Assembly (NCBI GenBank): GCA_015055515.1
Contig: SVIC01000005.1
Coordinates: 20,550-84,549 of the forward strand
Length of the DNA: 64,000 bases
Source of the DNA: Clostridiales bacterium
GTDB taxonomy: Bacteria > Bacillota > Clostridia > Christensenellales > UBA1242
Direction of reading: 5' to 3'
This document shows, one piece after another, positions 17,594-17,709 of this stretch. The stretch's first letter is position 1; each line of letters opens with the position of its first letter. The translations under genes were made by a program, and so were the position numbers. Below the pieces are notes generated by a model that ran no database searches, was not told the DNA's origin, and saw only the letters and a program-made list of their open reading frames with translations.

Positions 17594-17709
17594 TGGCGCG
17601 CTGTTGCACACGTTGGGTGCTGGAATAGAGTAGGCGGTTTATGCCCACTCTATTCCTCTGCCGTGCCGTGCAATCCTTGCAAAGTATCGCACGGCAAAAC
17701 AGCGCGCCA
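17594..17709. ncRNA. candidate structured RNA (four-helix junction), class and strand unknown
   Basis: 66 of 116 nt are G/C by my count, in a very AT-rich spacer. Closing helix is a perfect 12 bp, TGGCGCGCTGTT/AACAGCGCGCCA. Inside are GCAC/GTGC, GGAATAGAGTAGGC/GCCCACTCTATTCC (13 of 14 bp) and GCCGTGC/GCACGGC with an inner TGCAA/TTGCA. Confidence 0.5.

Follow-up and report, generated by a model that had tools for sequence, protein, structure and literature searches.

A compact four-way-junction element as a candidate structured RNA in a small clade of Christensenella-like Clostridia

The spacer between a D-Ala-D-Ala carboxypeptidase gene and an Ig/PKD-repeat protein gene of an uncultured Clostridiales bacterium carries a single G+C-rich element of 116 nt that folds into a closed four-way junction. 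Comparison with its homologues suggests that the element is probably a new, narrowly distributed structured RNA, which matches no known family. As an overall explanation we tentatively put first, at a little under even confidence, a single-copy, vertically inherited fold that is most likely a minus-strand RNA. The fold, and not the sequence, would be what selection has kept in a small clade of uncultured Christensenella-like Clostridia.

Structure and genomic position

The element occupies positions 17594-17709 of the window, the 64-kb stretch of DNA that was analysed, and our recount of its G+C content returned the same value as the original prediction (66 of 116 nt). Its host spacer (17471-17982, 512 nt) is bounded by the stop codon of the carboxypeptidase gene and by the ATG at 17983 of the Ig/PKD-repeat protein gene. 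G+C content is 25.8% in the spacer outside the element and 34.5% in the window. The upstream gene (16280-17470) encodes a D-Ala-D-Ala carboxypeptidase with Peptidase_S11/PBP5_C domains, and the downstream gene (17983-21576) encodes an Ig/PKD-repeat protein of 1197 aa. A position after the carboxypeptidase terminator and about 270 nt before the Ig-repeat gene had been proposed, and the distance from the end of the element to the ATG measures 274 nt. The surroundings belong to the core chromosome, as plsX, rnc (encoding RNase III), and smc follow one another at 27063-32330.

All four helices that had been drawn on paper are present in the sequence. P1 closes the junction with 12 of 12 base pairs between its 5’ arm at 17594-17605 (TGGCGCGCTGTT, in the plus-strand reading) and its 3’ arm at 17698-17709 (AACAGCGCGCCA). 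The P2 hairpin (GCAC-ACGTTGG-GTGC, with a 7-nt loop) follows at 17606-17620, and since no linker separates it from P1, the two helices can stack. P3 (17622-17656) is a hairpin of 14 bp with a 7-nt loop; 13 of its 14 pairs form on the plus strand, and the remaining one, at 17632/17646, is A.C on the plus strand and G.U on the minus strand. P4 (17660-17695) consists of a 7-bp base and an apical 5-bp hairpin, and the cmsearch alignment places an apical motif within it at 17669-17687 (TGCAATCCTTGCAAAGTAT; AUACUUUGCAAGGAUUGCA on the minus strand). The individual helices carry no strand assignment of their own; the element as a whole, defined by its fold, its rank as a window-wide outlier, and homologues located by synteny and covariance model, is placed on the minus strand tentatively. 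Overall, 72-79% of the nucleotides are paired and the linkers measure 0-4 nt. Bulges and internal loops are nearly absent, as are GNRA and UNCG loops, and conserved unpaired bases are few.

The closed four-way junction, originally a paper fold, was recovered as the minimum-energy structure on both strands (ViennaRNA). The plus strand reaches -65.9 kcal/mol (z -7.94) and the minus strand -69.4 kcal/mol (z -8.85), and on either strand 0 of 200 dinucleotide shuffles were equally stable. DNA parameters yield the same fold with z -8.4 and -9.0. In a 120-nt sliding fold over the whole window, regressed on G+C, the element deviates more than any other locus on both strands (-7.9 and -9.5 SD); ordinary terminators come next, at about -4 SD. 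Two minus-strand ORFs overlapping the element (17568-17765 and 17639-17830) had been regarded as artefacts. Both exist, but they are not conservable as protein, because the P3 and P4 sequences differ wholly in the homologues.

Homologues and conservation of pairing

Copies of the element reside in the same spacer of two further genomes, namely an uncultured Christensenella sp. (L001, GCA_964434145.1, positions 7171-7289) and L002 (GCA_054275055.1, positions 2507-2597). Both were located by synteny and by a covariance model, R1, which was built from the window copy alone and scored L001 at 69.6 bits (E 4e-14) and L002 at 37.1 bits (E 3e-6). Across the 153 kb searched, comprising the window and related loci, R1 with default filters returned no matches besides these three copies. 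Gene order is conserved in the relatives and runs from a giant surface protein through the carboxypeptidase and the spacer to the Ig-repeat protein; among 5.8 billion proteins, the nearest carboxypeptidase homologues, those of the two element-bearing relatives, share only 76% and 73% identity, and the next group reaches 61-64%. In the window, positions 218-14962 form a single ORF of 4914 aa with dozens of degenerate NVGGIVGY-like repeats (families D2-D8), the orthologues of which are called at 9104-9645 aa in the relatives. Tandem 138-nt repeats (families D1 and D7) also occur at 35695-36372, within an ORF at 34595-36586 that probably encodes a repeat-domain surface protein.

The distribution of the element is narrow. 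It is missing from six related lineages (L003, L004/L005, L008, L009, L155, and L156) and is, therefore, dispensable. An independent JGI metagenome contig is identical to the window genome over 9.6 kb, element included. The core common to the three copies reads CGCTGTY-GCAC ... TGCTG ... RACAGCG, and a pattern requiring this conserved P1/P2 core together with an AT-rich 3’ flank found one true match in 185,579 species genomes, which is the single copy in GCA_964434145.1. The 13 other matches do not fold and are due to chance, 11 of them lying in contexts with G+C above 50%. Metagenome contigs gave chance matches only to the element pattern, and a 24-mer from the conserved promoter/5’ UTR of the Ig gene had 0 matches in metagenomes. 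In viral contigs, the strict pattern and the P4 apical motif each had 0 matches; the relaxed core pattern had 120+, all of them chance matches in GC-rich phages in which P1 is not extended. A BLASTN search with 17560-17760 had no match in phage or plasmid collections.

Neighbour-joining trees of the carboxypeptidase place the three element-bearing hosts in one monophyletic group, and this restriction to a single host clade implies, as far as the trees go, a single gain followed by vertical inheritance. The copies also share their features in a mosaic manner: the P4 base is common to the window and L002, the P3 base to L001 and L002, and the P4 apex to the window and L001. This mosaic fits the carboxypeptidase tree with one change per branch, as vertical descent predicts, and speaks against independent recent insertions.

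The three copies fold into the same junction, with z-scores from -7.5 to -10.1. We counted base pairs on a hand-built structural alignment in which the helices are aligned from the junction outward; a MAFFT alignment of the copies is not structure-aware and misaligns P3 and P4. The copies contain 42, 47, and 35 stem pairs, respectively, and of these 124 pairs 121 (97.6%) are Watson-Crick, three are G.U on the minus reading, and none is mismatched. The loops are unconserved. P1 is perfect in all three copies (12-13 bp, with 12 of 12 aligned columns Watson-Crick), and 4 of its 12 columns underwent double compensatory change, one column showing G-C, C-G, and A-U. For P3 and P4, where per-column calls depend on the junction-outward alignment and on n=3 independent sequences, double compensatory changes are found in 5 of 8 columns of P3 (9 of 13 when the window is compared with L001, none broken) and in 4 of 5 columns of the P4 base. 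The P3 stem sequence is almost entirely different in L001 and L002. P2 shows a single change only, from C-G to U.G on the minus strand (C.A on the plus strand) in L001. As a control, shifting the 3’ partner by 1-3 columns lowered pairing to 24-55%.

Compensatory changes in homologues had been put forward as a check on the element, and the three copies provide many double changes and no broken pair. Their AT-rich flanks cannot be aligned by eye, so unconstrained sequence looks saturated at this distance and, on this comparison, the perfect stems must be actively maintained by selection on pairing. Invariance of sequence is confined to the inner P1 stacked on P2. CGCTGTY in the 5’ arm and RACAGCG in the 3’ arm of P1 are invariant in all three copies, as is the P2 stem base GCA/TGC, and the inner seven P1 pairs and the adjoining P2 base can stack as one continuous helix. 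The P2 stem of L002 extends to 10 bp. The window and L001 have nearly the same 19-nt apical motif in P4; L002 lacks it, its P4 being no more than a 5-bp hairpin. Homologues, covariation, and the lack of an Rfam match support the proposal of an unclassified structured element; this support concerns the fold and does not extend to the choice between RNA and DNA.

Two other blocks of the spacer are conserved in ten loci (the window, L001-L004, L006, L008, L009, L155, and L156). Just 3’ of the element, window positions 17720-17775 contain a dyad, TTTCCAAA-N12-14-TTTGGAAA, around TTTACATAAT, the centre of which is shortened to TTCCAAATAAATGGAA in the window and L002. The dyad block is found in 10 of 10 loci, including those without the element, and could be a transcription-factor operator or an AT-rich hairpin. 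Further downstream, the Ig-gene promoter, 5’ UTR, and gene start (17870-17985) are almost invariant across the ten loci. The promoter reads TTGACA-17-TAAACT at 17906-17934, and the invariant promoter/5’ UTR block reads AAATATAGTTGACATTTTTT.TATTAAAGTATAAACTCTACTTGTTACAA ... TTAAGGAGA ... TTACTATTATGAAAGGCAAC. The Ig-repeat proteins are only 42-61% identical, and because the non-coding DNA upstream of their gene is far better conserved, this block suggests a regulatory RNA or operator. Given that the element lies upstream of this conserved promoter, a role as leader of the Ig-repeat gene seems unlikely.

The same spacer holds different structures in other relatives. In L006, positions 4331-4441 form another G+C-rich four-way junction of 111 nt (z -8.9 and -11.0; identical in L007), composed of a closing stem (GCGACTTTTCG/CGAAAAGTCGC) and three hairpins, with a one-base bulge each, and preceded by a (GTAA)n(GTAT)n microsatellite (region 4245-4441). 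Its middle hairpin followed by TTTTT looks like the carboxypeptidase (dac) terminator. With default filters, R1 detected no sequence homology between this junction and the window type; with filters off, it produced a structure-driven end-to-end alignment to the L006 junction at 18.8 and 16.5 bits. Common to both types are linker lengths of roughly 2, 2-3, 1, and 0-1 nt. We regard it as doubtful, and indeed improbable, that the two types form one structure-defined class of compact four-way-junction RNAs or single-stranded DNAs. Members of such a class would act through their shape, for example as scaffold or decoy for a junction- or double-strand-specific protein, and would constitute a kind of bacterial non-coding element not yet described. 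In L004, the spacer between the carboxypeptidase and Ig genes spans 1.1 kb and carries repeated AACTTTTG-N5-CAAAAGTT hairpins (4180-4250 and 4520-4610). Two inverted segments of about 70 nt, CCCAGACCC.TTAAAACGC / GCGTTTTAGGGTCTGGG, also flank AT-rich DNA and scaffold gaps there and may be another palindromic insertion.

Strand and alternative explanations

Provided that the element is an RNA, it is fairly likely to be read from the minus rather than the plus strand, which three wobble pairs and the lower folding energies weakly favour. Each copy contains one non-Watson-Crick pair (in P3 of the window, P2 of L001, and P3 of L002), and each of these is G.U on the minus and A.C on the plus strand. 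The asymmetry had been read as a hint at the minus strand from the window alone and recurs independently in L001 and L002, with p ~0.25 for all three pairs agreeing in direction; an alternative P4 register in the window provides a fourth case of the same kind. The minus RNA fold is more stable than the plus fold by 3.5-4.5 kcal/mol in all three copies. Two signals had been taken to point to the plus strand, and both are present: a TATTAT box at 17583-17588 and a T-rich tail, TTAAATTTT, directly 3’ of the element. However, the TATTAT box is not conserved, and the T-rich runs that follow the three copies on the plus strand (TTAAATTTT, ATATTTTT, and AATTTCCATATTTTT) are part of a box that is also conserved in loci without the element. 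No sigma-70-like promoter is conserved at either element edge across the three loci, and no promoter-like site was found inside 17606-17697. In L001, the element starts right after the T-tract of the terminator, leaving, therefore, no space for a plus-strand promoter.

The intrinsic terminator of the carboxypeptidase gene (17469-17498, A6-GGCAAGG-GTTT-CCTTGCC-T6) is bidirectional, and a minus-strand transcript of the element could end there. In the minus reading, it follows the element at once in L001 (0 nt) and after 95 nt in the window; the L002 terminator has a poor U-tail on the minus strand. Among the three copies, the distance between element and terminator is 95, 76, or 0 nt, and the distance to the next conserved box 19, 4, or 14 nt. 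A terminator scan detected nothing at the element in the window or L001, and in L002 a partial minus-strand match at the P1 3’ arm only. A minus-strand ORF of 45 aa (17563-17426) was considered as a regulated gene and rejected: it has no Shine-Dalgarno sequence, overlaps the terminator, and finds no room in L001.

Whether the fold is adopted by RNA or by DNA is a separate matter, and here our preference for RNA is slight. The main alternative, plausible though somewhat unlikely, is a DNA-level palindrome. It could be the relic or domesticated form of a miniature transposable element, or else a site for recombination or for a structure-specific protein, with P1 serving as terminal inverted repeats and the nested hairpins forming in single-stranded or cruciform DNA. 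Near-perfect Watson-Crick stems with unconserved loops are more typical of DNA palindromes than of functional RNAs, and the element folds equally well with DNA parameters. Many transposon ends read TG...CA, and P1 displays TG...CA at or beside its ends in all three copies. In addition, the distance to flanking landmarks varies among the copies, unrelated palindromic inserts occupy the same spacer elsewhere (the L006 junction and the L004 hairpins), and sister lineages lack the element.

Against a DNA-level element, however, the 64 kb of the window contain the P1 arm, the conserved core, and a match to the covariance model only once each, and the element is also single copy in the one relative genome scanned. 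The neighbour genes scanned, a subset of the window ORFs, contain no transposase, integrase, or reverse transcriptase domains, and no such gene adjoins the element. A consistent target-site duplication is likewise missing: the flanks match as TT/TT in the window, at best as TAT/TAT in L002, and not at all in L001, and in AT-rich flanks such matches are expected by chance, just as old duplications would decay. Many copies flanked by target-site duplications had been named as the mark of a MITE, and the element shows neither multiple copies nor clear duplications. Both its distribution and its mosaic of features follow the host tree. A dead insertion would decay like the flanks, and selection on pairing is still required to explain the stems; moreover, the wobble pairs are biased towards one strand.

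A plus-strand RNA arising by read-through past the carboxypeptidase terminator, in which the element would back up termination, block exonucleases, or act as an insulator before the control region of the Ig-repeat gene, appears less probable still and, on balance, unlikely. It would account for the location of the element, which is always just past the dac terminator and directly abuts it in L001, and for the T-rich run that follows on the plus strand in three copies; the middle hairpin of L006 (GCCTCGGGAGG...CCTCCGAGGC+TTTTT) is indeed a good plus-strand terminator. Yet all three non-canonical pairs are destabilising A.C pairs on the plus strand, and the plus fold is the weaker one everywhere. 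The upstream terminators are strong in the window and L002, the T-rich run belongs to the box that is conserved without the element, and the terminator scan reports nothing at the element on the plus strand. A mere stability barrier would also need neither a closed four-way junction nor an invariant P1/P2 helix.

Inverton switches are common in gut bacteria, and here perfect 12-bp inverted repeats with a conserved core enclose about 90 bp upstream of a surface protein gene. This raises the idea of a phase-variation switch for this gene, in which an invertase would recognise P1 as its inverted repeats. We consider this highly improbable: the segment contains no promoter-like site, its orientation does not differ among the three species or between two independent assemblies of the window genome, and no recombinase gene is adjacent. 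The interior is itself near-palindromic, so flipping would change little, and the covariation in P2-P4 would be left unexplained. Finally, MAG assemblies can contain errors in general, but a chance G+C-rich palindrome or assembly artefact has a negligible likelihood, as the sequence is identical in the NCBI MAG and the independent JGI metagenome contig, two further species carry the element, and none of 200 shuffles folds as well.

Relation to known systems and possible function

The original prediction had found no match to known RNA classes, and our searches agree. No Rfam 15 family reached its gathering threshold over the whole window, and at E<=10 on 17400-18000 the only match touching the element was DUF805b, with 12.6 bits against a threshold of 35.6. 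The elements of L001, L002, and L006 returned nothing from Rfam, and ARAGORN reported no tRNA or tmRNA in 17400-17900. Weak Rfam matches at 17433-17534 (STnc40, STnc50, SpF25, and others; E 0.002-9) all lie on the dac terminator and reflect generic terminator hairpins, not sRNA homology.

The closest parallel in kind may be the orphan GC-rich-island ncRNA motifs in long intergenic regions of AT-rich bacteria, which emerged from Breaker-lab GC-IGR/DIMPL searches (PMC8723152; PMC11109978). Like these motifs, the element is a GC-rich island in an AT-rich spacer with a covarying multi-stem junction and a narrow range. It differs from typical riboswitch or ribozyme candidates in the much greater perfection of its helices and in the much weaker conservation of its loops and junctions. 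It matches none of the curated families of Rfam 15, and only three representatives are known. Given its few conserved unpaired nucleotides, unconserved loops, and linkers of 0-4 nt, it is unlikely to be a riboswitch or ribozyme.

Similarities to other structured elements are partial. With REP/BIME, Correia, RUP, and the bcr1-type repeats of the Bacillus cereus group, the element shares a length of about 100 nt, terminal inverted repeats, TG...CA-like ends, a high G+C content, an intergenic location just past a terminator, and a stable fold. REP/BIME-type repeats, however, occur in many dispersed copies per genome, whereas the element is single copy where tested, inherited with its host, devoid of clear target-site duplications, and equipped with three nested covarying hairpins. 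Retron msr-msd ncRNAs offer a further resemblance, though no more than that, in their closing inverted repeat of about 12 bp, a short hairpin, and long near-perfect hairpins; retron hairpins, too, vary in sequence between systems and keep their architecture. Unlike retron ncRNAs, the element has no adjacent reverse transcriptase, is shorter than typical, and presents no recognisable branching-G context. As in tRNA-like cloverleafs (tRNA and the bacterial Y RNA module), four helices surround one junction, and in the minus reading a 2-nt linker follows the closing helix and none separates the last hairpin from it, as in the acceptor, D, and T arms. Unlike tRNA, the closing helix comprises 12 bp and the arms 4-14 bp, T-loop and D-loop signatures are absent, and ARAGORN and Rfam are negative. 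The pRNA of the phi29 family is comparable in its length of about 120 nt, a helix closing its 5’ and 3’ ends, a multi-helix junction, and a structure that is kept at almost free sequence. In contrast to pRNA, which is phage-encoded and built on a three-way junction with interacting loops, the element resides in the core chromosome and has no match in Rfam, phages, or viral contigs.

Three more candidates were rejected. Integron attC sites would be expected to carry the outer sites RYYYAAC ... GTTRRRY, but the element has the opposite arrangement, CTGTT ... AACAG, and lacks an integrase in its vicinity. TGTTGCAC matches one half-site of the Firmicutes parS consensus; a second half-site is missing and L001 reads TGTCGCAC, and we treat the match as a coincidence. 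Pairing of P3 with the invariant 5’ UTR of the Ig gene amounts to a 6-nt match that is seen in the window copy alone and is not conserved.

Returning to the reading that we tentatively prefer, a minus-strand RNA, the element would most likely take the form of a small and very stable ncRNA or RNA domain of about 90-120 nt. Its transcription would converge with that of the carboxypeptidase gene and stop at or close to the bidirectional terminator that the two share. The continuous P1/P2 helix (CGCUGUY+GCA / UGC+RACAGCG) might then be what a protein partner or nuclease recognises, and P3 and P4 could be arms of which nothing but a helical form is required. A function as protein scaffold, and a shape-based role as such, is speculative.

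The known range of the element comprises three genomes, and its immediate impact is modest. Even at the DNA level, a single-copy palindrome that has long been kept by selection would be uncommon. If the element is transcribed, a little-studied, uncultured bacterial lineage of the gut and rumen would contribute a new structured RNA family. Its design is unusual: the four-way junction is closed and almost fully Watson-Crick, one stacked helix is invariant, and the arms evolve freely. In a transcribed element this design would point to shape-based recognition by a protein, rather than to ligand sensing or catalysis. As a compact natural four-way junction, it may also find use in RNA structural and nanotechnology work.
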